A DNA stretch of 40,141 nucleotides from a virus (IMGVR_UViG_2534682091_000016), one strand, 5' to 3'. Counted from the first letter of the stretch, positions 698 through 35,760 are shown. Translations and numbers: made by a program. The notes: generated by a model from the sequence alone, not told the origin.

Positions 698-1060
698 GGG
701 GCTGATTCTGGATTCGACGGGATTTGCGAAACCCAAGGTGCATGCCGAGGGGCGGTTGGCCTCGTAAAAAGCCGCAAAAAATAGTCGCAAACGACGAAAA
801 CTACGCTTTAGCAGCTTAATAACCTGCTTAGAGCCCTCTCTCCCTAGCCTCCGCTCTTAGGACGGGGATCAAGAGAGGTCAAACCCAAAAGAGATCGCGT
901 GGAAGCCCTGCCTGGGGTTGAAGCGTTAAAACTTAATCAGGCTAGTTTGTTAGTGGCGTGTCCGTCCGCAGCTGGCAAGCGAATGTAAAGACTGACTAAG
1001 CATGTAGTACCGAGGATGTAGGAATTTCGGACGCGGGTTCAACTCCCGCCAGCTCCACCA
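698..1060 (+). ncRNA. ssrA: tmRNA (transfer-messenger RNA, SsrA)
   Basis: Begins GGGGCTGATTCTGGATTCGACGGG and ends ...GGGTTCAACTCCCGCCAGCTCCACCA, matching the enterobacterial tmRNA as recalled, including the tag-coding stretch and tRNA-like 3' end with CCA. Confidence 0.93.
1016..1060. repeat. 45-bp att direct repeat, copy 1 (3' end of ssrA)
   Basis: ATGTAGGAATTTCGGACGCGGGTTCAACTCCCGCCAGCTCCACCA is repeated exactly at 35716..35760. Confidence 0.9.
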
Positions 1061-1070
1061 AATAAATCAA

Positions 1071-1100
1071 GGGGTTACGTGAAAGCGTAACCCTTTTTTC
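1071..1100 (+). terminator. Rho-independent terminator of ssrA
   Basis: GC-rich hairpin GGGTTACG-tgaaa-GCGTAACCC followed by a T-run (TTTTTTC) directly after the tmRNA 3' end. Confidence 0.7.
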
Positions 1101-1183
1101 TTTGGTAGTGGCGGCAAAATGGCGACAGACTTTTGCGTCCATCTTGCCTGTCGCCATCTTGAAATCATGCAAAGAGGTTTCAC

Positions 1184-1666
1184 ATGGAAGAACTTCACTT
1201 TGTTTACATCAATGCAAATGGTCGTATCGGTGTTCACTCTATACAGAGCATCAGTTATAGCGAAAATCATATACAGGGCATTTGTAAGAACACCGATCGA
1301 ATAAAAACCTTCCGAAAAGACCGCATTCTTAAACAGTACGATTCACCAGAACAAGCCATTCAGGAATGCGCGTCATTCCTCCCCGAAAGCTACTCACATC
1401 TCACTAAGCAGTCTGGTCCGAAAAAAAATACATTCGATGTGTGTTTCACCGGATTTAAGAAAGCAGATAAAGAAAGATTGGTTGATAAGGCGAATGAACA
1501 AGGATTAACGGTAAGAACCTCTGTAACCCAAAGCCTTCAGATGCTCTGTTGCGGTTACAATGCAGGCCCATCAAAAGTATCGGCAGCCAGGATGAAAGGC
1601 ACAATCATCATAGATGAGCCTGGCTTTATACATTTTCTTGAAACGGGTGAGATCCCAGATGAATAA
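1184..1666 (+). CDS. Hypothetical protein with C-terminal BRCT-like domain (accessory gene between ssrA and ogr)
   Basis: 160-aa ORF with AGAGG Shine-Dalgarno about 8 nt upstream; C-terminal half (FDVCFTGFKK...GTIIIDEPGFIHFLETG) resembles BRCT domains such as the LigA C-terminus; N-terminal 60 aa not recognised. Confidence 0.55.
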   Translation: MEELHFVYINANGRIGVHSIQSISYSENHIQGICKNTDRIKTFRKDRILKQYDSPEQAIQECASFLPESYSHLTKQSGPKKNTFDVCFTGFKKADKERLVDKANEQGLTVRTSVTQSLQMLCCGYNAGPSKVSAARMKGTIIIDEPGFIHFLETGEIPDE

Positions 1667-1692
1667 AAACCTGCCGTAGCAGGTTCTCTTTC

Positions 1693-1911
1693 TCAAAAAT
1701 TCATATGCCCCTGACCACCTGGCAATGGATGTGGAGGAGCAGTAGCAATCAGTGCGGGTGTCACAATAAACCGGACCACTGTTTCATGAGTAACAAAAGT
1801 GCTCCCGCAGTTAATATTTTGGCACTGGCAGTAACGCTCTTTGGTGCTTTCAGTTACTTGAAAACTGCTCCTTGTGTGTGCCGCATGACCACACTTTGGA
1901 CAATTCATCAT
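1693..1911 (-). CDS. ogr: Late-gene transcriptional activator, Ogr/Delta zinc-finger family
   Basis: MNCPKCGHAAH...CQCQNINC...PHPLPGGQ shows the Cys4 zinc-finger pattern of P2 Ogr; position beside gene D as in P2. Start chosen at the internal Met pair, not the longest ORF. Confidence 0.8.
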   Translation of the reverse strand: MMNCPKCGHAAHTRSSFQVTESTKERYCQCQNINCGSTFVTHETVVRFIVTPALIATAPPHPLPGGQGHMNF

Positions 1912-1979
1912 ATCCAGATCCCTACCTTTGCTATCAGAATCATTGTAATGATACACAAAATATCAATATTGAGAACACT

Positions 1980-3080
1980 TTATTCCATTTCAAGATCATC
2001 AATCTTCACTTCGAGTTCAATACTGGTTGTAAAACCGTTATCCGGGCTGACGGTATGTGTCAGAGTCGTAATGGTCCATTCCGCATCATCTATCGGCTGT
2101 TTAAAACCACTGACCTTCACAGGCATTTCCGTGTAGAGATCTGCCCGCCCTTCTGCCAGTTGTAGCGAAAATGACGCAACGCCGCGTTGCAGGCGTTCCC
2201 ACTGCATTTTCGCCGCTCGTTCGGCGTTGCTCCGGTTGGCATAAGTGCGATTAAGTACCAGCACGTTTTCATCCGTACCCACCAGGTAATCGCCCTGCTT
2301 CGCTTCTGGCTCTTTCTTCTGCTTCTTAGTTCTGCGCTTACGCTTCACCGTGGTGCTTTCTTTCTTCGCAGGTTCGCGGGTATGCAACCAGCTGGCAATT
2401 ACGCCCGTGTAGGCTCCGCGATCTGCCAGGGTAAATCGGTGACTGTCGCCGTCCTTGCGTGTGATAGTGATCACTGGCAGAGGTTTACCAGTGGCGCTTT
2501 TGCCCTGCCCCTGCCTGATGAATAACAGATTGCCATTTTTCACCGACGCGATGGCACCGTACTGTCGCGCCAGCCGCATCAGAAAACTGCCGTCACTCTC
2601 ATTAGTCTGGTCTATATGCTCCACGGGCTTATCCGACAGGTCTTTACCCAGTGCCATCTTCAGCTTGTGCCGCACGGCTATTTCCTTCACCACTTCCCCG
2701 ACGGTGGTCTTATGCCACGATTTTTCACGGCGGGTATTCAGCGTTTCCCGAAAATCAGCACTTCGCGCCCGGATAGTCAGGCGGTCCGGTGCGCCAGTGT
2801 GTTCAATCTCGTCCACCGTGAATGCTCCTTTCGGGAAAAGCGGCTGCCCCTTCCAGCCCAGCGCCAGCGTAATGACAGCACCACGGCGCGGCAGCGCTAT
2901 TTTTCCATCGGCGTCGTCCAGCTCCAGATCAAGCTGGTCCGCTTCAAAGCCCCGGTTATCCGTCAGCGTCAGCCTCATCAGGCGGTTATCCAGCACAGTG
3001 GTGATATCCCTGCCCTCAATACTGATGCTGAATGCGGGAGTTTTGTTGCCTTTGTTAAGCAGTTCAGAGCTGAAATTCAC
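1980..3080 (-). CDS. Tail protein D (late control gene D family)
   Basis: 366 aa, position after U and before ogr, P2 gpD-like length and sequence character. Confidence 0.85.
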   Translation of the reverse strand: MNFSSELLNKGNKTPAFSISIEGRDITTVLDNRLMRLTLTDNRGFEADQLDLELDDADGKIALPRRGAVITLALGWKGQPLFPKGAFTVDEIEHTGAPDRLTIRARSADFRETLNTRREKSWHKTTVGEVVKEIAVRHKLKMALGKDLSDKPVEHIDQTNESDGSFLMRLARQYGAIASVKNGNLLFIRQGQGKSATGKPLPVITITRKDGDSHRFTLADRGAYTGVIASWLHTREPAKKESTTVKRKRRTKKQKKEPEAKQGDYLVGTDENVLVLNRTYANRSNAERAAKMQWERLQRGVASFSLQLAEGRADLYTEMPVKVSGFKQPIDDAEWTITTLTHTVSPDNGFTTSIELEVKIDDLEME

Positions 3081-3562
3081 GACAGCAGCCCTCCCACCGT
3101 TTTACCGATATCGCTTAAGGCAGACGTTGCCGTGTCCTGCAGATTATTCAGTTGCGTACTGAGATCACCGAACATATCGGACAGGGATTCATCCACCCGT
3201 TTGAGCGACAGGGTGAACTCAATCCGGCGCGGCATACCATCGCGGAAAAACTCCGTTTTAGTCTGATTTATTCCCTCAATCACATACATGCCGTAAATGG
3301 TGCCGCTGCCTTCAATCAGGGGCCATGCTTTCCCCTGTTCTGCCATCTGCTCCAGTGCCAGCAACGACAGCCTGCCACCTGTTATCTCCGGCATAAGAAC
3401 ACCGGAAAGCGTCAGCATGTCGTTGTCCGGCCCCAGAAACTGCGTGGACGGACGTCGGTTTACCCGGCTGTTTGCCGCATGTCGCCAGCTGCGTTGATAC
3501 TGCAGCTCCTGATACGGCACGGTGCGCAGCATAAACACGTACAATCCCAGCACCATCATCAT
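3077..3562 (-). CDS. Tail protein U
   Basis: 161 aa, overlaps D start by 4 nt and follows the tape measure gene; P2 gpU synteny. Confidence 0.8.
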   Translation of the reverse strand: MMMVLGLYVFMLRTVPYQELQYQRSWRHAANSRVNRRPSTQFLGPDNDMLTLSGVLMPEITGGRLSLLALEQMAEQGKAWPLIEGSGTIYGMYVIEGINQTKTEFFRDGMPRRIEFTLSLKRVDESLSDMFGDLSTQLNNLQDTATSALSDIGKTVGGLLS

Positions 3563-6500
3563 GCGTCGTATCCCCCCTGATCGCTGTAGTTACTCCTGGC
3601 TTTTGCCTTCAGCCTGCGTTCACGTTCATCAAGCTGGCGGGCCACCTCCCGCGCAATATCCTGCGCACTTTGTCCTGGCTGCGTCTGGATGATGATCTGC
3701 GTCGGTGCCTCAATCCTGTAAACGGGCGGCACAGTGGCTGCGCGACTCACAATTGCTTCTCCACCTTTCGCGGGAAGTGCCAAAGGGTGCAACGGTGGAA
3801 GCTCTGCTGGCGCGGCAGCAACGCCCATCATTCCGGCGACAACCGCAGCCAGTGCAGCGGTATTTCTCCGGCTGGTCACGTTTGCCGGGCCGTTGACAAT
3901 TTCAGGCCCGTTTTCACCGACAATGCCAAACTGCCCGCGCGGGATATACCCGCCGCTGTCATACATCCCCGCAAAGCCATATCCCCATGATGGAAAACCA
4001 CCCGATGGTATCATCACTTTACCGTCTGCATTCACCGTCACAGGTTGCTGACGCGTCACGCTTTCCGGCAGTTTTGCCTTTGCGGCCTCTTTACTGACAA
4101 TGCCAAGTTTCTCCAGTAACCAGGAAACACCGGATTTCAGGGAGTCCAGCGGATGCATAACCATATTCAGCCCTTCCGCCAGTGCCTCCCCGAATCGTCG
4201 CCCCATTGCCGCTGCGCTCTGCAGTTCGGCAGAGGTCGACTTAACGGGCGTCAGCAGATCAGTAAACCAGCCCCACAGCGCCTGTACTTTATCGCCAATC
4301 CACTGAAATACAGGCTTAAGTGGTTCGAATGCTGCACTGACGGGACTAGCCGCCGCTTTGAATCCTTCCACCACGCCACCGAGAAATGCGTTGATGGGTT
4401 GCCAGTATTTCCAGACAACCAGTGCCACACCCGCCAGTGCAGTAACCACAAGACCTATCGGACTGAGCAGAGCACCTAACAGACCAGATATGGCATACAG
4501 GGCAACGCGCAGCATCGCCAGCGGACCGGATGCCAGTACTCGCAGCACCGCGCCTGCGGCAGCCAGTCCACCGCGTAGTGCTGCCAGTGGATTCATAAAC
4601 ATCACAACAACAGCACGTAAACCGGATAATCCAGACCGCAACAGTGCAACCGGCACACCTGCTACAGTTTTCAGGACATTCCCCGTCAGTGATGCCGTGC
4701 GGTGCAAAGACGACAACGGCGCAGTAAGTAAACCCGCTGCGTTGCCCGATGAAGCAAGCCCGCGTCGCAGCAGTGCCAGTGGAGCGCCAGCTAACCAAGA
4801 CAACGCTCTGCTGGTTCGTGTTACTGCTGCCGTAACGGAAGGTAACGTTTTGATACCCAGCACAGAGAATCCCAGACGGATGACTGCCAGCGGCCCCAGC
4901 ACTGCAGCCAGCGCCACCGCTAAGGTGCCGAGGCCTACGGTAACCGCAGCCACAACAGCCGCTACTTTCATCAGTGTGCCTGTCAGTTCCGGGTTAGCTT
5001 CCACCCAGCGGCGCAACGCCCCCGTGATGCTTTTCACCGTGTACAGAATATCCATCAGCGGCTGGCGCAGCGTTTCGCCCAGGCTGCTGAAGGTGTTCTG
5101 CGCTCCGGTTTTGACCAGCAACCACTGAGCAGAAAGTGAGTCTTTGTTGATGTCGGATTCTTTCTGCATGGAACCGAGCGCATCATTGCCCGCTGTCAGT
5201 TTTAGCTGGCGCTGCAGTTCCTGAAGGTTGTTTGCCAGTTTCGCCGCGTCATCACCAAACTCTTTACCAAACAACATGGTCATGGCAGACAGACGCTTGT
5301 CCTGCGGCAGTGCGTTCACCTTCTCCAGCACACGCTGGATAGTTCCCATCGCATCCTTCGTCATCTGCTTTTCAATCACTTCAGGATTGAGTTTCAGCAG
5401 ATTCATCCCTTCAAAGAAACTCTTGCTTTGCATGGTGGCAATGGACAATTCACGCACCATCGCGTTTGCTGCACTGGCTGCAACCTCCGGCGCAGCGCCC
5501 AGTGTCAGAAAGGTGGAACCCAGTGCCGCCGCTTTACGATAATCCAGACGGTCAGCCACACCGCCCAGACGTTGCATCACATCAATGATGTCCGCCCCTT
5601 TCGACATGGCGTTATCATCCAGATAGTTCAGCGCATCGCCGAGCTGTTCAATATTGCGGGTAGGTATTTTGTAGAGCTGGGCGATTTTCCCCAGACTTTC
5701 TGACAGTTCATCCGCTGGCAGCTCAAAGGCTGTTGCCGCCTTTGCTGCCGTACTGGCGAAGGCCAGCAGGTCACGTTTCTGGTCTTCCCAGCTGTCGTCA
5801 GGGTCTGCGACGTTCATGCGCGCACCACCTTCAACCAGTGCAGCGAAGTCCACCGCACCGTTTTCCATCGGCAACTGTTCGCTGGCAGCCTTGATGGCAT
5901 CCTGCATTTCATAAAAACGTGCAGTACGGTTTCCATTATCGTCACGCAGACCATTGACCTGCTTTGCCACACCTTTCATGGCATCTTCCATGCTGGTATA
6001 GCTTTTTACTGCCGCCATCACTGGCGTCCCCATTGCCAGCCCTGCAGCCGTGGTAGTGGCTCCGGCTCCTGCAATACGATCGCGCACCTCCAGCGAACGG
6101 GCATAACTGGCACGCGCCGCATTCATCCTGCGCTGAGCTTCACCCAGTCGCTTCAGCCGCGCCTCCTGTTTCGACAATTCCTGGTTATAACGTGATGTTT
6201 CACGGGCTAAACGGGCAGTTGCTCCCGCATCATCTTTCGCAGAAATTCCCGCCCGGTACAGTTCTGCACGCACAAGCGCCGTTTGCTTCTGCAAATATTT
6301 TTGTTGTTCTTCCAGGCGTTGGACTGCCAGCGTTTGCCGACCTAAAGCCACAAGGTGCCGTTGTGATGGTTGTTCCATCGCCTCCAGCTCAGAGCTAAGC
6401 AAATTAGCCTTCTGTCTGGCATAGTTCAGCCTGTCGCCTAACTTCTTGTTATCGGCCTGCAGCTTGCGAAATTTTTCCAGGCTGTTACCCGCCTGATTGA

Positions 6501-6636
6501 GTTGCTTTAATGCGTCACGGGAGTTTCTGATTGCACCAGCCAGCTCTTTCGAACTGGCCTGTGCAGCACGGAATGGGCGGGTGAGTTTGTCAACCGCATT
6601 AAGAATGACCTGCAGGCGCAGGTTGTTATCACTCAT
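3559..6636 (-). CDS. Tail tape measure protein (gpT)
   Basis: 1025-aa Ala/Gly-rich protein with coiled-coil N-terminus and hydrophobic repeats, downstream of the E/E' chaperone pair. Confidence 0.88.
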   Translation of the reverse strand: MSDNNLRLQVILNAVDKLTRPFRAAQASSKELAGAIRNSRDALKQLNQAGNSLEKFRKLQADNKKLGDRLNYARQKANLLSSELEAMEQPSQRHLVALGRQTLAVQRLEEQQKYLQKQTALVRAELYRAGISAKDDAGATARLARETSRYNQELSKQEARLKRLGEAQRRMNAARASYARSLEVRDRIAGAGATTTAAGLAMGTPVMAAVKSYTSMEDAMKGVAKQVNGLRDDNGNRTARFYEMQDAIKAASEQLPMENGAVDFAALVEGGARMNVADPDDSWEDQKRDLLAFASTAAKAATAFELPADELSESLGKIAQLYKIPTRNIEQLGDALNYLDDNAMSKGADIIDVMQRLGGVADRLDYRKAAALGSTFLTLGAAPEVAASAANAMVRELSIATMQSKSFFEGMNLLKLNPEVIEKQMTKDAMGTIQRVLEKVNALPQDKRLSAMTMLFGKEFGDDAAKLANNLQELQRQLKLTAGNDALGSMQKESDINKDSLSAQWLLVKTGAQNTFSSLGETLRQPLMDILYTVKSITGALRRWVEANPELTGTLMKVAAVVAAVTVGLGTLAVALAAVLGPLAVIRLGFSVLGIKTLPSVTAAVTRTSRALSWLAGAPLALLRRGLASSGNAAGLLTAPLSSLHRTASLTGNVLKTVAGVPVALLRSGLSGLRAVVVMFMNPLAALRGGLAAAGAVLRVLASGPLAMLRVALYAISGLLGALLSPIGLVVTALAGVALVVWKYWQPINAFLGGVVEGFKAAASPVSAAFEPLKPVFQWIGDKVQALWGWFTDLLTPVKSTSAELQSAAAMGRRFGEALAEGLNMVMHPLDSLKSGVSWLLEKLGIVSKEAAKAKLPESVTRQQPVTVNADGKVMIPSGGFPSWGYGFAGMYDSGGYIPRGQFGIVGENGPEIVNGPANVTSRRNTAALAAVVAGMMGVAAAPAELPPLHPLALPAKGGEAIVSRAATVPPVYRIEAPTQIIIQTQPGQSAQDIAREVARQLDERERRLKAKARSNYSDQGGYDA

Positions 6637-7065
6637 CGTTGGCCCCGCTTCTCTGAATCGCTTTATACCGCCATTCCAGCACTTCGGTCAGCGGCATAAC
6701 GTCAGTAACGGATGGCGGCCAGTGAAAAATGGTGGCGATATCTGCCACCAGATCGTCAACCGTCAGGCTGTCGGTAAACCGGCAAGCACCGACTTCTTCA
6801 ACAAAAAAGTGACAACCTCAACCGACATGGCTGTGAGATCTGCCGGGTCCATCTCTGCGATTTCCTGTGCAGTCAGTGCCGGACTGGAGATGCGGGGGAT
6901 CACGGTCATCATCGCGTTCACATCCATATCCATAATGGCCTGCAGGCGTGTGCCGCGCAGCGCACCAGACTGCGGTTTACGCAACACAATTTCGGTAATT
7001 TCTGTTTTACCGCGCATGATGGGGGTATCCAGTTGAATGGTCTTTTCAGTCTGTTTATCGCTCAT
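6629..7065 (-). CDS. Tail assembly chaperone gpE+E' (programmed -1 frameshift product)
   Basis: Slippery T-TTT-TTG on the minus strand at 6802..6808 in the gpE frame; the -1 frame stays open to a TGA at 6629..6631 overlapping the tape measure start, as in P2. Confidence 0.7.
6763..7065 (-). CDS. Tail assembly chaperone gpE
   Basis: 100-aa ORF ending ...VTFLLKKSVLAGLPTA; contains the slippery heptamer used to make E+E'. Confidence 0.85.
   Translation of the reverse strand: MSDKQTEKTIQLDTPIMRGKTEITEIVLRKPQSGALRGTRLQAIMDMDVNAMMTVIPRISSPALTAQEIAEMDPADLTAMSVEVVTFLLKKSVLAGLPTA
6802..6808 (-). promoter_or_regulatory. Programmed -1 ribosomal frameshift site (TTTTTTG)
   Basis: Heptamer read as ACT TTT TTG in the gpE frame; identical in form to the P2 E/E' site. 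Confidence 0.7.
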
Positions 7066-7119
7066 TTTGTTGTCCTGTAAATTAGGTTCTGGCGCGGCAT
7101 TCCGCGCCGTTCAGATACA

Positions 7120-7635
7120 TCAGAGGCCGAGGGCGTTGCGGTGCGCTTCCATCAGGTCCACACCGTCCACAATTTCCACCATGTTGATAAGGTCCACTTC
7201 ATAGAGCACCTCACCATTGATGGTCAGCTTCGCGTAGCTGTTGGTACTGGTCACTTTGGTGGTGTTGCTTTCGCCCGTCTTCCACTCGCCGGAATCCACT
7301 TCTTTGTGACGTCCACGCACGACAAGCTCCACGGCCTGCACTTCCCCGGTATCGTCACGCTGGATAGAGCCGGTAAAGCGCAGCTGGATGCCATCCACCG
7401 TGGATTTGCCCATCTGCTTAAACAGCAGCAGTTCAGTACCACCAATGGAAAATTCTGTATCCAGTGCACTGTCATCCAGTCCCAGATCCACATCCACCGC
7501 CCCCGGCATACCGCCGCCGCGATACTTCTCATATTTGCGGGTGAATTTCGGCAGCGTCAGCGACTCAACGATCCCCTGCCAGTTGTTCCCGTCGTTAAAC
7601 AGGTTCAGATGTTTTAATTTGCGTGGTAAAGCCAT
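7120..7635 (-). CDS. Tail tube protein FII
   Basis: 171 aa, directly after the sheath gene, P2 FII synteny. Confidence 0.85.
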   Translation of the reverse strand: MALPRKLKHLNLFNDGNNWQGIVESLTLPKFTRKYEKYRGGGMPGAVDVDLGLDDSALDTEFSIGGTELLLFKQMGKSTVDGIQLRFTGSIQRDDTGEVQAVELVVRGRHKEVDSGEWKTGESNTTKVTSTNSYAKLTINGEVLYEVDLINMVEIVDGVDLMEAHRNALGL

Positions 7636-7644
7636 GTTGTCCCC

Positions 7645-8817
7645 TTACGCGCTGACCTGGCTGGCGAAATTCACCAGGTACTGATCGGTGATGCGCTGGC
7701 GCAGCATCAGATTTTCAAGTGGCGGCATTGGCGTGTAGTCATAGTCGATGGTGAGTTTTCCGGCTTTCAGCGTGTCTTTGTCGTTCACCGACTCATCCAG
7801 CCAGCAATCACCACCAATGAGATACCCCTGACTGACCAGGCTGCGCATTTTGGCGCGGATACCTTCGATAATGTCGCGGGCCAGCGACGGGTTAAGCGGT
7901 TTATCCACCGCCCACATGTGTGCTTCTGCCATCGTGTCCATCAGCACCTGCGCCGTGCGGGTGTAGTTTTCGAAGGCAAAGAGCGGGTCATCACTCAGGC
8001 AGCGGGAACCCCAGAAGCGGAAACCGTCTTTACGCACAAGCGTGGTGACGTCGTTCTGGTTCAGCAGACCTGCATCGGTTGCCGGGTCCTGCAGATCCCA
8101 GAACACATCAGCAGAAATTCCGGTGACACCGTTCACGCCCACGTTGGACAGGCTTTTGTGCCATCCAGTCTGCTCATCAATTTTGGCGCGCAGACCGAGC
8201 GCACGAGCGGTGGCATATGCCGTTGCTTCGGCATTCAGCACCGTGTCCCAGCCAGTAAAGTCAGGCCAGATCAGCATCCCTTCGCGCTGGCTGAAGTTTT
8301 CGCGGTAAGTGATCGCCTCCTGCACTGTCTTGCAGCCATACGCTGACAGGTAAGCAAACCCACGCAGGCTTTGCGCCACGCTCAGCAACTCAGTAGCTAC
8401 CGCCTTGGTGTCGTGGCCTGGCACGCCGAGAATGCGCGGTTTAACGCCGAGCTGTGACTGGGCAGATAACAGGGCTTTCATACCTGTTTTTTTACCTTCA
8501 GCAGTCACTGCGCCGATGATATTGGTCGTGGTTTCTTCTTCCGTTTCACCCTGCGGCACACGCACAACAACGGTCACGGGTTTTGCCTGGTCAGCGATGG
8601 CATCCAGCGAGCGGGCCAGTGTGCCGGACTCACCCGCTTTACCGCTGGCAGTCAGCACATCAGTGATCAGCACGGGTTTATTAAGAGGAAACATTTTTGC
8701 ATCGGCATCATCGCCCGTGCAGACCATACCCACGATGGCGGTGCTCACCGTGGTAATAGATCGGGTGCCTTCGTTGACTTCAACAACGCGCACCCCGTGG
8801 TGGTAATCCTGAGCCAT
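7645..8817 (-). CDS. Contractile tail sheath protein FI
   Basis: 390 aa with P2 FI-like length and position ahead of FII. Confidence 0.88.
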
Positions 8818-8893
8818 AGTGGCGAACCTCCTGATTGGATTAGGCTTCGCCCTATGTTGAAGTGATTGTGCCTGACAAACAGCTAAGCGCAGT

Positions 8894-8911
8894 TGTACCG
8901 TTATTCATACA
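8894..8911 (-). promoter_or_regulatory. Putative Ogr-type activator site (TGT-N12-ACA) of the FI late promoter
   Basis: TGTACCGTTATTCATACA lies about 77-94 nt upstream of the FI start codon; P2 late promoters carry TGT-N12-ACA near -55. Confidence 0.5.
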
Positions 8912-8959
8912 AAATGACGGTATTTGTCTGCTTGCAGGGATAATCAACATAATGCTGAT

Positions 8960-9532
8960 TCAGGGGGATTCATTGCTCTTATTTGCCGGAAATTTTCTAT
9001 AAATTGTGGAAACACCTACATCAAAAATCAGTGCAATACGCTGTCTTGATTCTCCGGCCTCGAGTAAACGTCCAATCTGTGCCCACTGTTCGGTGGTCAA
9101 CTTAGGACGGCGTCCACCTACTCTGCCTTTGGCGCGAGCTGCAGCAAGCCCCGCCCTGGTACGTTCAACTATCAGTTCGCGCTCCATTTCAGCCAGGGCA
9201 CCCATGACATGAAAAAAGAAACGGCCCATTGGGGTACTGGTATCAATACTGTCAGTCAGGCTTCGGAAATTCACGCCACGCTGGCGCAGCTCTTCTATCA
9301 GCGTAACGAGATGCCGCATACTGCGCCCCAACCTGTCCAGCTTCCAGACAACCAGAGTGTCACCTGCCGATAATGTCCTGAGCAGTTTTTTCAGTCCCGG
9401 TCTGTCGGACTTAGTGCCACTGATTTTGTCCTCAAAAATCCGCTCACATCCCGCGCAGTTCAGCGCACTACGTTGCAAATCGGTGTTCTGGTCATTTGTT
9501 GACACGCGTACATAGCCAATAAGCATGATCAA
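8960..9532 (-). CDS. Serine DNA invertase (Gin/Hin/Pin/Cin family)
   Basis: N-terminus MLIGYVRVSTNDQNTDLQR...LVVWKLDRLGRS and C-terminal HTH align closely with Mu Gin as recalled; sits next to an invertible tail-fibre segment. Real start probably the third codon. Confidence 0.88.
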   Translation of the reverse strand: MIMLIGYVRVSTNDQNTDLQRSALNCAGCERIFEDKISGTKSDRPGLKKLLRTLSAGDTLVVWKLDRLGRSMRHLVTLIEELRQRGVNFRSLTDSIDTSTPMGRFFFHVMGALAEMERELIVERTRAGLAAARAKGRVGGRRPKLTTEQWAQIGRLLEAGESRQRIALIFDVGVSTIYRKFPANKSNESP

Positions 9533-9581
9533 TCCCCTGAATAAAAACCGGGGATGATGCCAGTTAGCCGTTATCTCTGCA

Positions 9582-9607
9582 TTTTCATAAACGTTGGTTT
9601 GGGAGAA
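9582..9607. repeat. Invertase crossover site 1 (gix/hix-like, 26 bp)
   Basis: TTTTCATAAACG-TT-GGTTTGGGAGAA: two imperfect 12-bp half-sites around a 2-bp core; 14 bp are an exact inverted repeat of 11148..11161. Confidence 0.75.
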
Positions 9608-25952: not shown

Positions 25953-26141
25953 TCAGCTGATGACATCCATTGAGCGGTTGTATTCGTGGGTTCTGATTTT
26001 TGCCATGAGTTCATCAGTCAATTCAGAAACCCACTGCAGAGCCAGCCCCTTCTCTTCATCACTACACTCACTAGCCGCTACAAGCTTAAGAAAAAAATCA
26101 ATGCGCTGGAGCTTCAAAGACTCCAAAAAATAGTCCTGCAT
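25953..26141 (-). CDS. Small protein, first gene of LexA-box operon (possible Tum-like antirepressor N-terminal part)
   Basis: 62 aa from the Met with an AGGAGG Shine-Dalgarno; 44 nt downstream of a perfect LexA box; stops 10 nt before the DinI-like start. Confidence 0.5.
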   Translation of the reverse strand: MQDYFLESLKLQRIDFFLKLVAASECSDEEKGLALQWVSELTDELMAKIRTHEYNRSMDVIS

Positions 26142-26184
26142 CTTTCCTCCTATGACACCACACGCAACACTGTATGTATAACCA

Positions 26185-26200
26185 CTGTTTATATTTACAG
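26185..26200. promoter_or_regulatory. LexA box (SOS operator)
   Basis: CTGTTTATATTTACAG fits CTGT-N8-ACAG with an AT-rich centre; an overlapping half-site CTGTATGTATAA lies just upstream. Confidence 0.7.
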
Positions 26201-26294
26201 TATATAATAATCTTACTGATGTAAAACGTTTTTTTACGTTCATCAGCCTGATATGCCTGGTATTATTAAGAGCACGAATTGTTAACCCGCGTAA

Positions 26295-28709: not shown

Positions 28710-29563
28710 GCACGCACTCCGTACACGGCGGAACAATCCACGCCACGCGAAGGATCAAATCCTATCCAGCAGCGCGGCCCGGCAACAGCAATGATTTCTG
28801 TTGCAGATTTACTCTCACCAGCTGCCACGCCGATGCTGCGTTTTGCCTTGATGTAGTGGTGAGTAAAATTGCGATACAGCGAACGGATCAGGGATGTGTC
28901 ACTGTTAGAAATAATGACCGGATATCCTTCTGATGACCGATGTTCAAGAACGGATGCCAGGTGATACTGGTCATCTTCAGTGAAACCATCAGTGTGATAG
29001 CCGGAAAACGTACCGTCATAAGGCGGATCGCAATACACCACATCCCCCGCGTGCAACATCGCCAGCGTTTCATCGAAGCTGGCGCAGATAAACGTTGCCC
29101 GCTGGGCTTTTACTGCAAATGCACGAATTTCTTTTTCAGGAAAATACGGATTTTTATAATTACCGTAGGGAATGTTGAAATGCCCGCTCTTGTTATAGCG
29201 ACATAAACCACGGTAACCGTGACGATTGAGATACAGGAAATATATCGCTTTCATGAAATCAGTAATTTCAGTTGAGTAATTAAACTCCTGCCTTATGTTG
29301 TAATAATCCATCTCCCTGTTTGCGTTCTCAAATAAAACTCTGGCGCGAGATATAAACGATTCACAATCAGCGGCAACCTTTTTATAGAGGTTGATTAAAT
29401 CAGGATTAATATCCGCAACCAGATAGCTGGGATAATCCGTCTCCATCATCACAGCACAGGAACCCGCGAAAGGTTCAACCAGTCGCGGGCCAGCAGGAAG
29501 ATGTTTTTTCAGTTCGGACATTATGGCAGTTTTATTTCCCGCCCATTTCAGGATGGTGCTCAT
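28706..29563 (-). CDS. dam: DNA adenine methyltransferase (Dam family)
   Basis: N-terminus ILKWAGNK...[10 protein letters not shown] and DPPY motif (VVYCDPPY); start at the ATG with a GGAGGTG Shine-Dalgarno, overlapping the upstream stop. Confidence 0.85.
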
Positions 29564-29787
29564 ACAGCACCTCCGTTGTAATGTTTGCCTTTCAGCTCTG
29601 CGATTTCCTGACAGGTAATGCAAAGCTGCACACCCGGAATGGCACGGCGGCGTGCTGGCGGAATTGGCGCTTCACACTCAATGCAAAGCACGCGGGACAC
29701 GCCCGGCGTTTTGGCACGGGCAGCACGGATATGGCGTTGGCGTTCTTCTTCAACGCGCTGCTGTACGAGATCCATTGCATCAGCCAT
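29560..29787 (-). CDS. TraR/DksA-family C4 zinc-finger protein
   Basis: 75 aa with CIECEAPIP...CITCQ four-Cys motif typical of phage TraR-like proteins. Confidence 0.7.
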   Translation of the reverse strand: MADAMDLVQQRVEEERQRHIRAARAKTPGVSRVLCIECEAPIPPARRRAIPGVQLCITCQEIAELKGKHYNGGAV

Positions 29788-30026
29788 TAGTGGATCTCCT
29801 GCGCTTCGTTCTGGATTGCTTCAGCAGTCACACGAAGCAGTTCTGCCGCTTCCACGTGGTTTAGCTGGCGGGATGAGATATGAAACGCCAGGCTATCAAG
29901 GCGAGCTGCCATTGCTTCAGCCCTTGCCCGGCGTTCTTCCAGACGAGCCTCTGTCAGTAAAATATTAAGCCCTGCGTCAGCCGGTCCGGTTTTGGTCGAG
30001 AGGGTTTCAATATTACGCATAATCAA
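29787..30026 (-). CDS. Hypothetical early-region protein
   Basis: 79-aa ORF co-oriented and tightly packed with neighbours (start overlaps next stop). Confidence 0.45.
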   Translation of the reverse strand: MIMRNIETLSTKTGPADAGLNILLTEARLEERRARAEAMAARLDSLAFHISSRQLNHVEAAELLRVTAEAIQNEAQEIH

Positions 30027-30087
30027 TTCTCCTGAATTTAGATAAAGGGATGCCCGGCGGGTTTACGCCATTAATTTCATTAGTTGG

Positions 30088-30429
30088 TTAATTCGGCATG
30101 GTTAGCCGTCTGGGAAATAAGCTCACCACTGCACGAAAATGATTCATTGCTTTAATCAACTCCCGCTTTTCGTCAGTGGTCAGCTCATTAATGCTGATGC
30201 TATGACGTTCAGCTGGAATTTTTGCCATAAAGAATATGGCAGCCAGTGCCCGTTTATTTTGTTCGCTATTAATATCGCGTGGATCACGCATATCTTTAAT
30301 AAACCGTTCAAGCTCTGACTCAATATTCAGACCAAAAACTTTCGCCCTTAACTCCGCAATGTGATTAAGTCCATTCAGGCGTTCACCGGGGCCTAATGGA
30401 ACAGTCGCCGCAGCGCCATTAATTGCCAT
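30088..30429 (-). CDS. Hypothetical early-region protein
   Basis: 113-aa ORF in the early operon; no recognisable motif. Confidence 0.45.
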   Translation of the reverse strand: MAINGAAATVPLGPGERLNGLNHIAELRAKVFGLNIESELERFIKDMRDPRDINSEQNKRALAAIFFMAKIPAERHSISINELTTDEKRELIKAMNHFRAVVSLFPRRLTMPN

Positions 30430-30451
30430 AATTCATATTCCCAAAACGCAA

Positions 30452-30676
30452 CTATCGCTCTTTGTTCTTACGGTAACGCTCAAGAGGAGATATATTTTTT
30501 CGTATCATCTCTTTAACCTGCTCTCCCCGTAAAAACGTCCCATCCTTTAGCGTGAAAAAGTAACTGCCATCGCCCGACAACGACGGATAACAACAGAGCA
30601 AATCATCTTCAGATACTGAATAACTCTCCCCTCTGTAACGAAACTGATAAACCACTTCACTTTCCGCTGCATACAT
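30452..30676 (-). CDS. Hypothetical early-region protein (Fil/Dhr position)
   Basis: 74 aa with a GGAG Shine-Dalgarno; overlaps the next ORF by about 130 nt in another frame. Confidence 0.4.
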   Translation of the reverse strand: MYAAESEVVYQFRYRGESYSVSEDDLLCCYPSLSGDGSYFFTLKDGTFLRGEQVKEMIRKNISPLERYRKNKER

Positions 30677-30843
30677 TTTGACTTTCTCCGTTTCCCCGTG
30701 GTCAATTCAGACAGCAATTCATCTTGTGAACGGCACGGATGCCAGCGTTTACCATCCTCACCCATGATCCAGCCGTGACCGTAGTGCATTGCCGGGCTTT
30801 GTTTTACCAGCAGCGATGCAAATGATGGTTCTTTCGTCAGCAT
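30547..30843 (-). CDS. Hypothetical early-region protein (Fil/Dhr position)
   Basis: 98 aa from the Met with a GAGGTG Shine-Dalgarno, 8 nt after the cII-like stop; Cys/His/Arg-rich. Confidence 0.4.
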   Translation of the reverse strand: MLTKEPSFASLLVKQSPAMHYGHGWIMGEDGKRWHPCRSQDELLSELTTGKRRKSKCMQRKVKWFISFVTEGRVIQYLKMICSVVIRRCRAMAVTFSR

Positions 30844-30850
30844 AAGCACC

Positions 30851-31360
30851 TCACAGCAAACCGAATGAAGCACCGAGGCCAGTCACGGTATCAACTGCAC
30901 TCGCCATCGCAGGATTAGCCTGTAAACGGGCCTGCAATGAAACAGCAGCCAGCGCCATCAGTCGTGTTACAGAGTTAATGCTGCTGATAGCATCACGACG
31001 ACCTGCACTGGTTTTTACATCGCCAGATACCGCACCTGCAGCAACACGCCCGATCTCTGCGGTTGCACTCATGACGTAATGTGGCAGTTTCTCTTTTGCC
31101 ACCTCATTAATCGGTACACATGGCAGACAATGAATCTGTGCCAGAAAACCATCTATCAGCGTTGAGTCTTCTGTCAGATCGGTAAGCAGCCAGATTTCTG
31201 GCGCATTGAGCTGATGCGGTTGATCTGGGTTGAGTTTGTTTCGCAGTGTCTGAACATTCATTCCTGCACGTTCTGCCAGCTTCGCCATATTGTGACGTAG
31301 TGCAAAAGCTCTACAGGCTTCATCAAAATACGGATGTTTGGAAATCTTGTAATCAAACAT
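30851..31360 (-). CDS. CII-like transcriptional activator (phage 186 CII family)
   Basis: 169 aa, the length of 186 CII, placed after the apl/cox-like gene on the lytic transcript; family assignment from recall and synteny. Confidence 0.6.
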   Translation of the reverse strand: MFDYKISKHPYFDEACRAFALRHNMAKLAERAGMNVQTLRNKLNPDQPHQLNAPEIWLLTDLTEDSTLIDGFLAQIHCLPCVPINEVAKEKLPHYVMSATAEIGRVAAGAVSGDVKTSAGRRDAISSINSVTRLMALAAVSLQARLQANPAMASAVDTVTGLGASFGLL

Positions 31361-31392
31361 GCTGCCCCCTTAGAAAGTTCCCATAATTGAAC

Positions 31393-31635
31393 TTACTTAC
31401 CAACAATGACGCGGAAGTTGGAATGTCCGAGGGATTCACGGACCTGATCAGTTTTGTACATCAGATAACGCAGACTTACGCGGCCTTTGTTTTTTTCTTT
31501 CTTGACCATGTACTTAGCAAGTTGACCATGGTGAATTTTTTGGTAAACAGAGCCGCGGGAAATGCCCTCCCACTCTGCGAACTCAGCAGGTGTTGCCATC
31601 TCTTTTGGTACACGAATTGAAATATCAGTACTCAT
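31393..31635 (-). CDS. Apl/Cox-like excisionase and repressor of the lysogenic promoter
   Basis: 80-aa basic protein, first gene of the lytic early operon, divergent from cI. Confidence 0.65.
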   Translation of the reverse strand: MSTDISIRVPKEMATPAEFAEWEGISRGSVYQKIHHGQLAKYMVKKEKNKGRVSLRYLMYKTDQVRESLGHSNFRVIVGK

Positions 31636-31756
31636 AGTGCAGTATCTCTTACTTTGTGTGCGTGTTAGTTCGTTTTAGCCCGTCTCTTAAACTCTCACAT
31701 CAAGAGACAAGAAAACATTACGATCTTGATTCAAGATTGTCAAATGGAGATTACCA
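31636..31756. promoter_or_regulatory. Lysis-lysogeny switch region (face-to-face early promoters and operators)
   Basis: 121-bp intergenic region between divergent apl-like and cI-like genes; contains the short palindrome TCTCTTGATGTGAGAG / TCTTGATTCAAGA. Confidence 0.5.
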
Positions 31757-32389
31757 ATGTTAAACATCAGAATGGGTTCCGATACGGGAGGTAAAGCAGC
31801 TATTGAGAGGCTGCTTGCGGCTTATGGATTCACAACTAAGCAGGCATTAAGTGAGCACCTGAATGTCTCAAAAAGCACTATGGCAAACAGAGTGTTACGT
31901 GACAGCTTTCCTGCTGACTGGATAATTCAGTGCGCACTAGAAACCGGTGTTTCGTTGCTTTGGTTAGCTACAGGACAGGGAAGCATGAAAGCAGGATCTG
32001 AGACTGAAAAAAGATCTCACAATGAGAACAAACAAGCAATTAAACCGTTATCTAAACTCATAACTCCATCTATTCCTAAAGGAACCTTGGAGAATGGACA
32101 ACTCAGTATTGATGAAGAGATTTTCCTAGACCACAGCATATTACCTGCAAATTATGAAGAATCGATGTTCTTAGAAACCCCTACTGATTGTTATCTCATC
32201 GATAAATCAGTTAAACAAGTCAGCAATGGATTCTGGCTTATCAATATTGATGGAATGATTATTATTGCAAAAATTATGCGGATTCCCGGCAATAAGATTG
32301 TAGTAAATCAAGATGAAGCGTCTTTCGAGTGCTCTGCTGATGATGTGGAAGTTATTGGGCGTGCAGTCAAAGTAATAAAGAGTATCTAA
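31757..32389 (+). CDS. Immunity repressor (186 CI-like)
   Basis: 210 aa with N-terminal HTH-like region; GGAG Shine-Dalgarno; followed 3 nt later by int, as in P2/186. Confidence 0.75.
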   Translation: MLNIRMGSDTGGKAAIERLLAAYGFTTKQALSEHLNVSKSTMANRVLRDSFPADWIIQCALETGVSLLWLATGQGSMKAGSETEKRSHNENKQAIKPLSKLITPSIPKGTLENGQLSIDEEIFLDHSILPANYEESMFLETPTDCYLIDKSVKQVSNGFWLINIDGMIIIAKIMRIPGNKIVVNQDEASFECSADDVEVIGRAVKVIKSI

Positions 32390-32391
32390 AC

Positions 32392-33408
32392 ATGACTGTC
32401 AGAAAACAGCCAAACGGCAAATGGTTGTGTGAGTGCTATCCCAATGGACGCAATGGCAAGCGCGTGCGTAAGCAATTTGCTACGAAAGGAGAAGCCATTG
32501 CTTTTGAAAGCTTCACAATGGAAGAAGTGAATAAAAAACCGTGGCTAGGTGAAAAGGATGATCGGCGACGCCTATCAGAATTAATTGAGCTTTGGTATTC
32601 CCTGTATGGCCAGACACTCGCAGACCCCAAGCGCCTCATGGCGAAACTTAGAATTATCTGTAATGGTCTAGGCGACCCCATCGCCTCAGAACTGACAGCC
32701 GGTGACTTTACAAAATACCGCGAAGCACGGTTAAAAGGCGACGTTCGTAACGAAGACGGCACACTAATGTCGCCAGTAAAACCACGCACGGTGAATCTTG
32801 AGCAACGTAACCTATCATCGGTTTTCGGCACATTGAAAAAACTAGGCCACTGGTCAGCACCAAATCCTCTCGCCGGGCTGCCAACATTTAAAATCGCTGA
32901 GGGGGAACTGGCGTTCCTGACCTCGGAAGAAATTAAACGTCTGCTAGATGCCTGCGCTGATTCTCAAAACCCCAGTCTGCTTTTGATTGCAAAAATATGC
33001 CTGGCCACCGGCGCACGCTGGAGTGAAGCCGAAAACCTGCAGGGCCATCAGTTATCTAAATACCGCATCACTTATACCAAGACGAAGGGCAAGAAAAACC
33101 GCACCGTGCCGATATCTCAAGATCTGTATGACGAACTCCCCAAGAACAGAGGGAAGCTATTCACCCCGTGCAGAAAAGCCTTTGAACGGGCAGTAAAGCG
33201 AGCTGGCATCGAGCTGCCAGAGGGCCAATGCACTCACGTGCTACGTCATACATTCGCCAGTCATTTTATGATGAATGGCGGAAACATACTGGTCCTACGC
33301 GATATTCTGGGCCATGCCGATATAAAAATGACGATGATTTACGCCCACTTTTCGCCGGATCATCTTGAAGATGCAGTTACTAAAAACCCTTTATGCAACT
33401 TAAGATAG
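32392..33408 (+). CDS. int: Tyrosine integrase (P2/186-type)
   Basis: 338 aa with catalytic signature HVLRHTFAS...GH...MIYAH near the C-terminus; reads toward the distal att repeat. Confidence 0.9.
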   Translation: MTVRKQPNGKWLCECYPNGRNGKRVRKQFATKGEAIAFESFTMEEVNKKPWLGEKDDRRRLSELIELWYSLYGQTLADPKRLMAKLRIICNGLGDPIASELTAGDFTKYREARLKGDVRNEDGTLMSPVKPRTVNLEQRNLSSVFGTLKKLGHWSAPNPLAGLPTFKIAEGELAFLTSEEIKRLLDACADSQNPSLLLIAKICLATGARWSEAENLQGHQLSKYRITYTKTKGKKNRTVPISQDLYDELPKNRGKLFTPCRKAFERAVKRAGIELPEGQCTHVLRHTFASHFMMNGGNILVLRDILGHADIKMTMIYAHFSPDHLEDAVTKNPLCNLR

Positions 33409-33786
33409 AGTAACTTATGAAAATAAACTCAAATTATTTACAAATATAATATTCAGCAGGTTATCCATTCTTATTTAACTCTTCAGACTGAGATTAGATT
33501 TTATTTATAGAATAAGATAATTTCATATCACAAAAAACCTGTAAGCCCTCATCTTTGTTGTATAAAAACATAAAAGACGCCATATTCAAAAAAGTCGAAA
33601 AGCATTGCAATGCAACATTAAAAATAAGCCAATAAAAACCAGTCATTAGAAAATGAAAAAAAACAAAAACATTTTTTATCAAAGCTTCAGTCTGACTACT
33701 AGTTTGACTCTGCAATTAACTATCAAGATGATCAATATTTATTGATCATCTTGAAGTTGCCCTCAGGAAAGATGAGTATAATATTT

Positions 33787-35523
33787 CTACTCAAGAAGAT
33801 ATTCTAACTCATCTTTTATCGGGATAACTTGCTCATAAAGTCGGTGATATGACTTCCCAATTGCGCCTCTGAATTGTATTAACTTTGGTGGCTTGTTACC
33901 TATATTAATAATATGGTCTTGAGCTATACCTGGGTAGGGATCAATAAATACAATTTCAGATATACCTAACTGATAAGCTTTTTTCGCACACAGCTCACAG
34001 GGACTGGCAGTTGTATATAACCTCCCCCCCTGAACGCCAATGCCACCATATTTTGCAAGTTGTAAAAATGCGTTTTCCTCAGCATGTAATGCACGTGTAT
34101 GAACTTGATTACCTTTTTTATCTTTATCAAGATCATTATGTATATCTTTAAAACAATAAGATAAGTTCCTGCCTCTATAAATATCACCAGTTTTATCTAT
34201 CGCCCTAAAATTTAATAGTTTCTCATTAGCTTTAATTCTGAAAGAACTATTATTTCTCTCATAATAACTGTACACTTTTTCATCAAAGTCGTTCATTAGG
34301 CCATCTAGCGATCTCATAGAGCAAGGAATCTGACCGTTGGCGACATCATTCCAACCCACTGATTTTATTGAATTTTCACCATCAGTTACTACAGCTCCCA
34401 CCTGTCTAGATATACAACCAGAGTTTAATTTTACCGTATACGCAACTTGCATAACCCTTTCCATTGCAGTAGGTGTTATCAGACCAGGATGCTTCATCAG
34501 TGCGATGTACCACGCTAATTGTGCTTTTAAAATATTGTCATTATCAAATTCATTTTTTGGGTTAAAAATGTGTATATCTGATAGTTCAATGCATTTAGTT
34601 ACATTTGGATTAGTGAGATGTTTGTAAGAGTTATCACCTTTACCTGACTCTACAGAATCTATTTCCTCTATCTGCTTTTCAGAAAACTTATGTAGTTTCC
34701 GCAAATAGTTTGTTCGATGTTCATCTGGGGCATTTATTGACATTAAATGAAATGCAGAATATCTATCCTTAAAAAATTTTGCTTCATATGGATTTCTAAT
34801 AGCATCTATGACAATTAATGCGTTATCTCTTTTGCTTTTTCTTATTAATTTAATAACCCTATTAATAGTTTCCGGCAAATGAAAAACAGATTTAGGTATA
34901 AACTCTTTATCTTCAAAATCGACTTCAATACGCCCACGGCGTCTAATTGACTTACCTGCTAACTGATAGACTGAAACATATAAATTTGAGTTTATCGCAT
35001 TTAGTTCAGCTTTGAATTCCTTAGTAAATTTTCTAACTAACCTCAAAATTGATATAAATTTATTAATCGTTTTTTCATTAAGCTTCAATTCACTATTATG
35101 ATCAAGCAAATTCTCAATTACATTTTTAAATCTTGTTAAAATGAGATTATCTGAAAATACACCAAAAGTTAATACATTATCTAAATGCTCTTTACTGATA
35201 GATTTATTAGATGATAGAATAAACTCAGAAGCTTCTTCAACTGTTAACATCAAAAGATACGCTGAGATTAGGTCACTCACCTTAATTGAGTAAAAATTTT
35301 CCCAGTGATTTTCTGCGAATTTTTTAACTATATTATAACGATGGACATCCAATCCCTTGTAAAAACCCTGTAATTTACTTACATCAGGGAAGACTGTTTT
35401 TTCGTTTTCAAGAATATTAGCTGTTGTTGTGCAACCAGAACCAGTTCGACCTGTCAAACCGACTAAAATAAACTGCCCATTTTCAAGGAAAAGCTCACTA
35501 ACGAATTTTTTTTCTTTCATCAC
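33787..35523 (-). CDS. Kinase-like P-loop domain fused to CMP/dCMP-type deaminase domain (candidate defensive dCTP deaminase)
   Basis: 578 aa; N-terminal P-loop GLTGRTGSGCTT; C-terminal zinc-deaminase motifs HAEENA and SPCELCAKK; strongly AT-rich compared with the flanking prophage genes. Confidence 0.7.
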   Translation of the reverse strand: MMKEKKFVSELFLENGQFILVGLTGRTGSGCTTTANILENEKTVFPDVSKLQGFYKGLDVHRYNIVKKFAENHWENFYSIKVSDLISAYLLMLTVEEASEFILSSNKSISKEHLDNVLTFGVFSDNLILTRFKNVIENLLDHNSELKLNEKTINKFISILRLVRKFTKEFKAELNAINSNLYVSVYQLAGKSIRRRGRIEVDFEDKEFIPKSVFHLPETINRVIKLIRKSKRDNALIVIDAIRNPYEAKFFKDRYSAFHLMSINAPDEHRTNYLRKLHKFSEKQIEEIDSVESGKGDNSYKHLTNPNVTKCIELSDIHIFNPKNEFDNDNILKAQLAWYIALMKHPGLITPTAMERVMQVAYTVKLNSGCISRQVGAVVTDGENSIKSVGWNDVANGQIPCSMRSLDGLMNDFDEKVYSYYERNNSSFRIKANEKLLNFRAIDKTGDIYRGRNLSYCFKDIHNDLDKDKKGNQVHTRALHAEENAFLQLAKYGGIGVQGGRLYTTASPCELCAKKAYQLGISEIVFIDPYPGIAQDHIINIGNKPPKLIQFRGAIGKSYHRLYEQVIPIKDELEYLLE

Positions 35524-35715
35524 GTCCCACTTATGAATGTAAGAATATTCAACATATTAATTATAATTTATTAACTCATTTTGTTCTAGATACTTGATGT
35601 AATGGCGGCACTTTGGCGACGGAGCATTAAAAACGCGTAAGACGAGCAAATACAACAAAACACTAACACATTGTTTTTAAATATAAATAGCTGTTTTTAC
35701 TATACTAAAAATGGT

Positions 35716-35760
35716 ATGTAGGAATTTCGGACGCGGGTTCAACTCCCGCCAGCTCCACCA
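35716..35760. repeat. 45-bp att direct repeat, copy 2 (junction between the two elements)
   Basis: Exact copy of ssrA 1016..1060; the P4-type integrase gene starts about 165 nt downstream. Confidence 0.9.

Follow-up and report, generated by a model that had tools for sequence, protein, structure and literature searches.

A P2/186-like prophage with a Fels-2-type integration module at the 3' end of Escherichia coli ssrA, in front of an islet headed by a P4-type integrase

The window analysed here, the whole 40,141-nt stretch of the viral sequence IMGVR_UViG_2534682091_000016, covers an E. coli locus around ssrA, the gene for transfer-messenger RNA (tmRNA), in which a 45-bp direct repeat of the gene end encloses a P2/186-like prophage and is followed by a short second element headed by a P4-type integrase, referred to below as the islet. 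An earlier note on this DNA had read the locus as two integrative elements in tandem, one helper-like and one satellite-like, sharing an att core. Our analysis indicates that the locus very probably contains a single P2/186-like phage, probably still mobile, inserted at ssrA in front of a fixed integrase remnant, and that there is no helper/satellite pair. Arrangements of this kind at enterobacterial ssrA have been on record since 2003 (Williams; Pelludat) and are commonplace in E. coli and Salmonella.

The host locus is smpB-ssrA of E. coli, the first 1.3 kb being 99.8% identical to E. coli sequences and matched by all complete genomes searched (5426/5426). The core gene smpB, upstream of ssrA, occupies 1..483 (+) and carries the RefSeq annotation 'SsrA-binding protein SmpB' in the 99.8% identical matches. 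The ssrA gene is intact, with ARAGORN placing a tmRNA gene with the tag ANDENYALAA at 698..1060 (+) and the Rfam model RF00023 matching the same interval with 295.8 bits over its full length (positions 1-374). The final 45 nt of the gene, ATGTAGGAATTTCGGACGCGGGTTCAACTCCCGCCAGCTCCACCA, occur exactly twice in the window, at 1016..1060 and 35716..35760, both on the plus strand, which confirms the exact recurrence claimed in the earlier note. No further copy is present in the window even at ≤3 mismatches, and 100 shuffles gave no match at all. Because the flanking bases differ on both sides (G at 1015 vs T at 35715, and A at 1061 vs C at 35761), the repeat is exactly 45 bp long.

The first copy (1016..1060, +), which is also the 3' end of ssrA, constitutes the core of attL of the prophage, and the second (35716..35760, +) that of attR, corresponding in the pre-phage state to the ssrA end abutting the islet. 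When attP was rebuilt from the window (35300..35760 followed by 1061..1500) and compared with phage genomes, the Escherichia phage Cartapus spanned the junction in one piece, with the exact 45-mer occurring once, between the int-side cargo gene and the BRCT-domain gene/ogr; the Cartapus record was assumed to be a packaged phage genome, on the grounds of its description and annotated cos ends. In the record of Fels-2, a split attP is annotated, and its joined halves, ATGTAGGAATTTCGGACGCGGGTT and CAACTCCCGCCAGCTCCACCAAA, give the same 45-mer plus AA, with arms homologous to those in the window. A synthetic empty site, made by joining 600..1060 to 35761..36500, is found at ≥80% coverage in 958 of the 5426 complete E. 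coli genomes, the best matches being in a single piece at 100% identity. As the attP records of Cartapus and Fels-2 agree with the empty-site junction, the insertion is precise to the base.

The motif TGGCGGCAnnnnTGGCGAC (TGGCGRCR-N3-4-TGGCGAC) occurs twice in 40 kb, once per att arm, with 0 occurrences expected: as TGGCGGCAAAATGGCGAC in the P' arm at 1109..1126 (+), with an inverted half-site at 1150..1157, and as TGGCGGCACTTTGGCGAC in the P arm at 35603..35620 (+). It is kept in both Cartapus arms and in the P arm of Fels-2, the P' arm of Fels-2 being seen in part only. Judged by occurrence and conservation, both are candidate arm-type sites, and the repeats are probably bound by the phage integrase (Int). 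Starting 9 nt past the end of ssrA, the P' arm of the prophage also contributes an intrinsic-terminator-like hairpin (1069..1096) with a T-run, together 1069..1102 (+), which was identified in a terminator scan and is conserved in the attP regions of Cartapus and Fels-2. Since attP supplies a perfect 45-nt copy together with its own terminator, ssrA stays functional after integration. The same scan identified a hairpin with a T-run in the islet at 35795..35830 (+), which is the ssrA terminator in prophage-free strains; this stretch shares 83% identity with the spacer between ssrA and intA in K-12, although the integrases that follow are only 48% identical. Each element, then, brings its own terminator-like hairpin just past the ssrA end.

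The prophage extends from 1061 to 35715, and its 34.7 kb of unique DNA are a usual size for the family. Nucleotide identity to Cartapus and 500465-1, the set of core genes and the Fels-2 gene order identify it as a P2/186-like (Peduoviridae) prophage with a Fels-2-type integration module, apparently intact. From 1061 to 25000, identity to the Escherichia phages Cartapus (Elveevirus) and 500465-1 is 95-96% at the nucleotide level over 83-89% of the length. All annotated genes of Cartapus were translated and searched against the window by tblastn. The genes Q, P, O, N, M, L, X, R, S, V, W, J and I as well as FI, FII, E, E', T, U and D are full length and stop-free, with 84-100% identity to Cartapus, and holin, endolysin, LysB, ogr, gpA, Dam, CI, CII, the Apl/Cox-like protein and Int likewise have full-length, stop-free Cartapus counterparts. 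Tail-fibre gene H is matched only across its N-terminal part (residues 1-355 of 473), and for the distal genes of tail-fibre assembly the matches to Cartapus are weak.

Within this interval, an ogr/B-like late-gene activator at 1693..1911 (-), 98.6% identical to the Ogr-like protein of Cartapus and matching phrog_603, precedes the late region (1980..23073), in which the tblastn matches to Cartapus proteins run in the order D, U, T, E/E', FII, FI, an invertase accompanied by an invertible segment of tail-fibre sequence, then H, I, J, W, V, S, R, LysB, endolysin, holin, X, L, M, N and O on the minus strand, followed by P and Q on the plus strand. The cos region lies at 24756..24907, where 152 nt are 88.8% identical to the joined genome ends of Cartapus, annotated as a P2-like cos site. 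The replication endonuclease gpA is encoded at 26295..28736 (-) (Pfam Phage_GPA, 2.4e-126; 98% identity to Cartapus gpA). A 186-type lysogeny switch occupies 30851..32389 and consists of CII (30851..31360, -), a Cox/Apl-like excisionase-repressor (31393..31635, -) and CI (31757..32389, +), supported by Pfam Phage_CP76, Phage_CI_repr and Phage_CI_C and by the excisionase families phrog_6912 and phrog_575. Immediately downstream, a P2-type tyrosine integrase of the Fels-2 type (32392..33408, +; Pfam Int_N and Phage_integrase) reads toward the distal repeat, with 92.9% identity to Fels-2 Int across 337 aa, 93.5% to Cartapus Int and 39% to P2 Int. As far as can be judged from sequence, the Cartapus counterparts, cos and the 186-type switch bear out the earlier description of a complete P2/186-like prophage whose integrase points to the distal repeat.

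Comparison with known systems places the prophage in the Fels-2/SopE-phi type, as the virion, lysis and replication genes, an integrase of the Fels-2 lineage, the duplicated ssrA-end att core and the 186-type lysogeny module are all present. Fels-2 (Salmonella, Felsduovirus) shares with it, besides the 45-mer core plus AA and the homologous P and P' arms, the arm motif, the terminator, a Gin/Cin-like invertase with an invertible tail-fibre segment, and the gene order ssrA, ogr, D to Q, cargo, A, CII, Apl, CI, int, attR. Fels-2 and SopE-phi differ in their host (Salmonella vs E. coli), in a backbone of only ~75-86% nucleotide identity and in their accessory genes, whereas the window prophage has Shosta, a dCTP deaminase and a BRCT-domain gene. 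Cartapus and 500465-1 are closer, with the same type of Int, CI, Apl, CII and attP in addition to the high identity in most of the late region, and the differences from Cartapus reside in the variable slots (DUF4145 vs Shosta, RES-domain vs dCTP deaminase, and hyp46 and hyp47 vs a 141-aa open reading frame (ORF)) and in the distal tail-fibre and assembly genes. Table 1 of a published paper gives Fels-2 and SopE-phi, with reference to Williams 2003 and Pelludat 2003, a 'P2 integrase' at ssrA and a repeat without damage, while P4-integrase elements at ssrA (CP4-57, Stm27X, Stit11X and others) are listed with damaged distal repeats (PMC10107115). Enterobacterial ssrA elements in general use integrases of several subfamilies, the P2 and P4 types among them, at the ssrA 3' end, form tandem arrays, bring their own terminators and often have damaged distal sites when the integrase is of the P4 type; the window shows no difference in kind from these and represents one more instance with a particular cargo set.

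The second element starts, as the earlier note described, with a P4-type integrase within 165 nt of the second repeat and reading away from it. This IntA-like tyrosine integrase (35926..37155, +; 409 aa) is intact, contains the Pfam domains Arm-DNA-bind_3, Phage_int_M and Phage_integrase, is 48% identical to K-12 IntA and 34% identical to P4 Int (416 aa), and is 100% identical to the intA annotated beside the Stx phage phi467. It is followed by a 138-aa ORF (37194..37610, +) that belongs to phrog_6556, of unknown function, and has no Pfam family above threshold, and by a 588-aa receiver-domain protein (37683..39449, -; Response_reg_2, PF19192, 3.7e-31). The next gene, at 39433..39819 (-), is a C-terminal remnant of 133 codons of a histidine-kinase-like protein (HEF_HK and HATPase_c, Pfam HATPase_c) truncated by IS3, with similarity to relatives stopping at 39819; the full-length protein in a relative has 572 aa with both domains. 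The remaining sequence (39820..40141, +) is the left end of IS3, comprising its inverted repeat and the start of orfA, and runs off the window; it is 100% identical to, and in the opposite orientation from, the IS3 annotated in a relative locus (L001). PADLOC does not recognise the kinase and receiver pair, which is therefore not called a defence system here.

Apart from its integrase, nothing in the islet resembles a satellite. P4-like satellites are defined by int together with psu, delta and sid, plus alpA, epsilon and alpha (PMC8628076), and an integrase by itself is no satellite marker (PMC13586616). When 13 P4 proteins were compared by tblastn with 35761..40141 and with the full islet of L001, Int alone matched, and the only match of P4 Delta was to the ogr of the prophage itself. 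None of the Pfam families PF07455, PF04606, PF05930, PF10554 and PF03288 was found over all islet ORFs, including those of the full-length relatives, so that psu, sid, delta, alpha, epsilon and alpA/vis homologues are missing from the window and from the relatives alike. A query with the Cartapus cos site gave only a chance-level match of 23 nt in the islet (E = 0.033), the real match being that in the prophage. By the published definition of P4-like satellites the islet is not one of them, and with no satellite gene beyond int, no cos and an IS3 cut at 39820, the satellite-like character proposed earlier is not upheld. Satellite P4 and the islet share the integrase subfamily and domain architecture, whereas P4 has alpha, epsilon, sid, delta, psu, vis/alpA and cos and the islet none of these. 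The attachment site of P4, leuX, is a different one, and a 20-bp attP core of its own is annotated for that phage.

Another parallel is CP4-57 of K-12, which likewise has an IntA-type integrase directly after ssrA in the same orientation and a conserved terminator-like spacer. CP4-57 differs from the islet in its length of 22 kb, in its AlpA excisionase and in its damaged 16-nt attR repeat ('psaA', CTCCGCCAGCCCACCA); with 14 CP4-57 proteins tested against the islet, IntA alone matched and no AlpA was found, indicating that no other CP4-57 gene is shared. CP4-57 duplicates only the last ~16-18 nt of ssrA, from the T-loop equivalent, as against 45 nt here, suggesting that the two integrases probably use the same gene end but different crossover positions. 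The proposal of a shared att core consequently holds in that both integrases target the ssrA 3' end, and is only loosely true of the core itself, given a CP4-57-type duplication of ~16 nt compared with 45 nt.

The far end of the islet was followed in two strains, 504237 and WP3-S18-ESBL-09, which contain an intact ssrA, a P2-like prophage with cargo different from that in the window, a second 45-mer and then the same islet. There the islet spans ~5.5 kb and comprises int, the small ORF, the receiver protein, the 572-aa kinase-like protein and IS3, which in both strains directly abuts ygaQ, truncated at the equivalent of K-12 locus coordinate 33062 and followed by glaH, lhgO and gabDTP. In K-12, CP4-57, ypjA, pinH, ypjBC and ileY lie between ssrA and ygaQ. 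A third ssrA fragment was sought in three ways: as the 45-mer with ≤3 mismatches, as an exact sub-fragment of ≥11 nt, and as an 18-mer with ≤3 errors including indels, the last search being validated by its recovery of K-12 psaA. The 45-mer search gave no further copy downstream of the islet in the window or the two relatives. With the 18-mer there was no hit in the window beyond 35760 or in ~10 kb past the repeat in the two relatives, and the exact search was negative over ~24 kb past the repeat in either relative. Exact matches of 11-12 nt inside the prophage (e.g. at 13771 and 19848) are at chance level and were rejected as ssrA fragments. The islet in the relatives has probably lost its distal att site through an IS3-associated deletion; with that site gone and ygaQ and core genes following, it is to be regarded as fixed chromosome. 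The search for a further repeat downstream, which had been suggested as a check together with the comparison of related strains, thus revealed none, and in the closest relatives the islet is contiguous with core genes, an outcome that the earlier note had named as counting against its reading, so that the description of a second bounded mobile element is probably wrong.

In the window, IS3 cuts the kinase gene at 39820 and lies in reverse orientation relative to the copy with which the islet terminates in the relatives (kinase and receiver cargo pair at 22080..26928 of L001), which points to either a local inversion mediated by IS3 or another insertion event. This kinase/IS3 junction (39300..40141) is covered by none of the complete E. 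coli genomes in the collection.

The frequencies of the different junctions bear on the order of events. The islet lies directly on ssrA in 958 of 5426 complete E. coli genomes (≥80% coverage), the left, attL-type junction between ssrA and the prophage occurs in 169 genomes, and the junction of prophage right arm, 45-mer and islet in 47, making the islet-only state twenty times commoner than the tandem state. An identical islet is also found behind the lambdoid Stx phage phi467. The phi467 record (LN997803.1, locus L005) contains intA, the 138-aa ORF and the genes of receiver protein and kinase at 31797..38226; as the record continues past the phage end into the ssrA islet, this part is host islet and not phage. 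The junction counts, together with phi467, imply that different phages repeatedly insert between ssrA and the resident remnant. Because the islet-only state is the commoner one, and the islet shows decay in contrast to an intact and variable prophage, we infer from the sequences that the islet came first and the phage was the later arrival.

Several other explanations of the locus were considered. Two functional elements in tandem, a P2-like helper and a P4-like satellite with one att core and each able to excise, would account for an intact P4-type integrase in canonical position and orientation immediately past an ssrA-derived core, and P2-like phages are natural helpers of P4-like satellites (PMC8628076). 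We nevertheless consider this very unlikely, given that the islet lacks every satellite gene sought apart from int, in the window as in full-length relatives, that this integrase is no satellite marker, that IS3 interrupts the islet, that the relatives have no distal att and lead instead into the truncated ygaQ and core genes, and that the islet persists unchanged in ~18% of E. coli genomes, beside different phages or none. Equally improbable is the reverse order, in which the P2-like phage was resident first and an element with a P4-type integrase later entered the ssrA fragment at attR. That fragment does keep the ~16-18 nt duplicated by IntA elements, as seen at K-12 psaA, and could in principle have been a target; however, the islet sits directly on intact ssrA in 958 genomes, with best matches of 100%, vs 47 genomes with the prophage arm before it, and decay is seen in the islet, which is interrupted by IS3 and lacks both an excisionase gene and a distal att, the prophage being intact with cargo that differs from strain to strain. 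An origin of the 45-bp repeat by chance match, segmental duplication or assembly artefact instead of integration is a formal possibility to which we give almost no credence: besides the shuffling result, the repeat equals the Fels-2 and Cartapus attP core base for base, its edges fall where similarity to phage genomes, and to chromosomes with the empty site, begins or ends, and the same architecture recurs in independently assembled complete genomes.

The single-phage interpretation has to be set against three considerations. Only 4.4 kb of the second element lie in the window, whose end falls within IS3, and the far end of the element was read only in relatives; the reading of Cartapus as a packaged genome is assumed from its description and annotated cos ends; and the islet integrase is intact and highly conserved, the beginning of its gene belonging to a junction shared by hundreds of genomes, and may have residual activity. 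There is accordingly a slim chance, slightly below that of a satellite pair, that this integrase still acts on the ssrA cores flanking the prophage, each of which includes the short P4-type core, or that the islet is a minimal hitcher mobilised by ssrA-integrating phages via unknown genes. An active islet integrase could open another way, independent of the phage, of deleting or capturing the prophage or of damaging ssrA, as happens when CP4-57 excises.

For the single phage in front of a resident remnant, the course of events may be envisaged as follows. Before the arrival of the phage, ssrA would have been directly followed by the small islet headed by the P4-type integrase, a presumed relic of an earlier ssrA-specific integrative element of which int, the small ORF and the two-component-like pair are left. 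A temperate P2/186-like phage with a Fels-2/SopE-phi-type module would then have entered ssrA of E. coli at the 3' end of the gene. Its attP would consist of the ssrA-identical 45-bp core between arms with TGGCGGCAnnnnTGGCGAC repeats, with Int bound to core and arms, and the Int-mediated site-specific recombination of attP with attB would have taken place somewhere within the 45-bp identity block. The phage copy of the 45 nt with its terminator would keep ssrA intact at attL, and the displaced original end would become attR. Int and the Cox/Apl-like protein may together still be able to release the prophage, for which the contiguous attP in phage records and the precise empty sites of other strains give indirect support; with two identical cores, this would restore the wild-type gene.

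This corresponds to the textbook hotspot at tRNA and tmRNA genes, where a phage replaces the 3' end and terminator with its own copy and leaves the gene functional, and where successive arrivals stack up behind ssrA. For annotation, the value of the analysis lies in the exact prophage limits (1061..35715) plus one 45-bp core, in the caution that a P4-type integrase beside a P2-like prophage is no evidence of a satellite, and in the record of the defence cargo, Shosta and a dCTP deaminase, together with a disrupted two-component-like module. Excision of the prophage should spare ssrA, unlike that of CP4-57, which can still excise and thereby deletes T357 of K-12 ssrA, inactivating trans-translation (PMC10107115).

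Cargo genes of the prophage lie in slots that vary among relatives. Between gpQ and cos, a described P2 hotspot (PMC9122126), lies the Shosta defence pair at 23099..24635 (-), with the DprA-like ShosA (325 aa; 23099..24076; PADLOC 8.5e-70, Pfam DNA_processg_A) and the phosphoribosyltransferase-like ShosT (189 aa; 24066..24635; PADLOC 2.7e-18, Pfam Pribosyltran) forming a toxin-antitoxin-type pair. In Cartapus this slot contains a DUF4145 gene, while a P-loop NTPase or a retron reverse transcriptase of the Ec67 type occupies it in other relatives. The slot between int and att, also noted as a P2 hotspot (PMC13586616), carries a dCTP-deaminase-type defence gene of 578 aa at 33787..35523 (-) (PADLOC dCTPase 8.1e-145; Pfam dCMP_cyt_deam_1), with a G+C content of 0.34-0.38; Shosta is low in G+C as well. 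The gene in the int-att slot is different in each relative examined, with a RES-domain gene in Cartapus and hypothetical proteins in 504237 and WP3-S18-ESBL-09. Between cos and dinI, a 141-aa ORF (25124..25549, +; phrog_7437) stands in place of two unrelated Cartapus genes and may belong to the same variable hotspot as Shosta.

Beside attL and before ogr, an accessory gene for a 160-aa BRCT-domain or ligase-like protein lies at 1184..1666 (+), with a weak Pfam BRCT match, a match to phrog_2561 (2.5e-77) and 98% identity to CARTA_32 of Cartapus. The product resembles the C-terminus of NAD-ligases and is labelled 'exonuclease' in Cartapus and 'DNA ligase' in 500465-1; PADLOC gave weak matches to PDC-S48 and SspE. 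Two further ORFs, 1705..2136 (+) and 25565..25960 (+), are probably spurious, since each lies opposite a phage gene (ogr and dinI, respectively) on the other strand and neither matches any family.

A Gin/Cin-like serine invertase gene at 8960..9532 (-) adjoins a segment of ~1.6 kb bordered by 27-nt inverted repeats (9582..9608 and 11147..11173) that are 81% complementary and contain AAACC..GG crossover-like cores. On the segment are an alternative C-terminal end of the tail fibre (9554..10060) and a gene for assembly (10060..10665). The region 8960..11173 looks like a host-range switch as in Mu, P1 and Fels-2.

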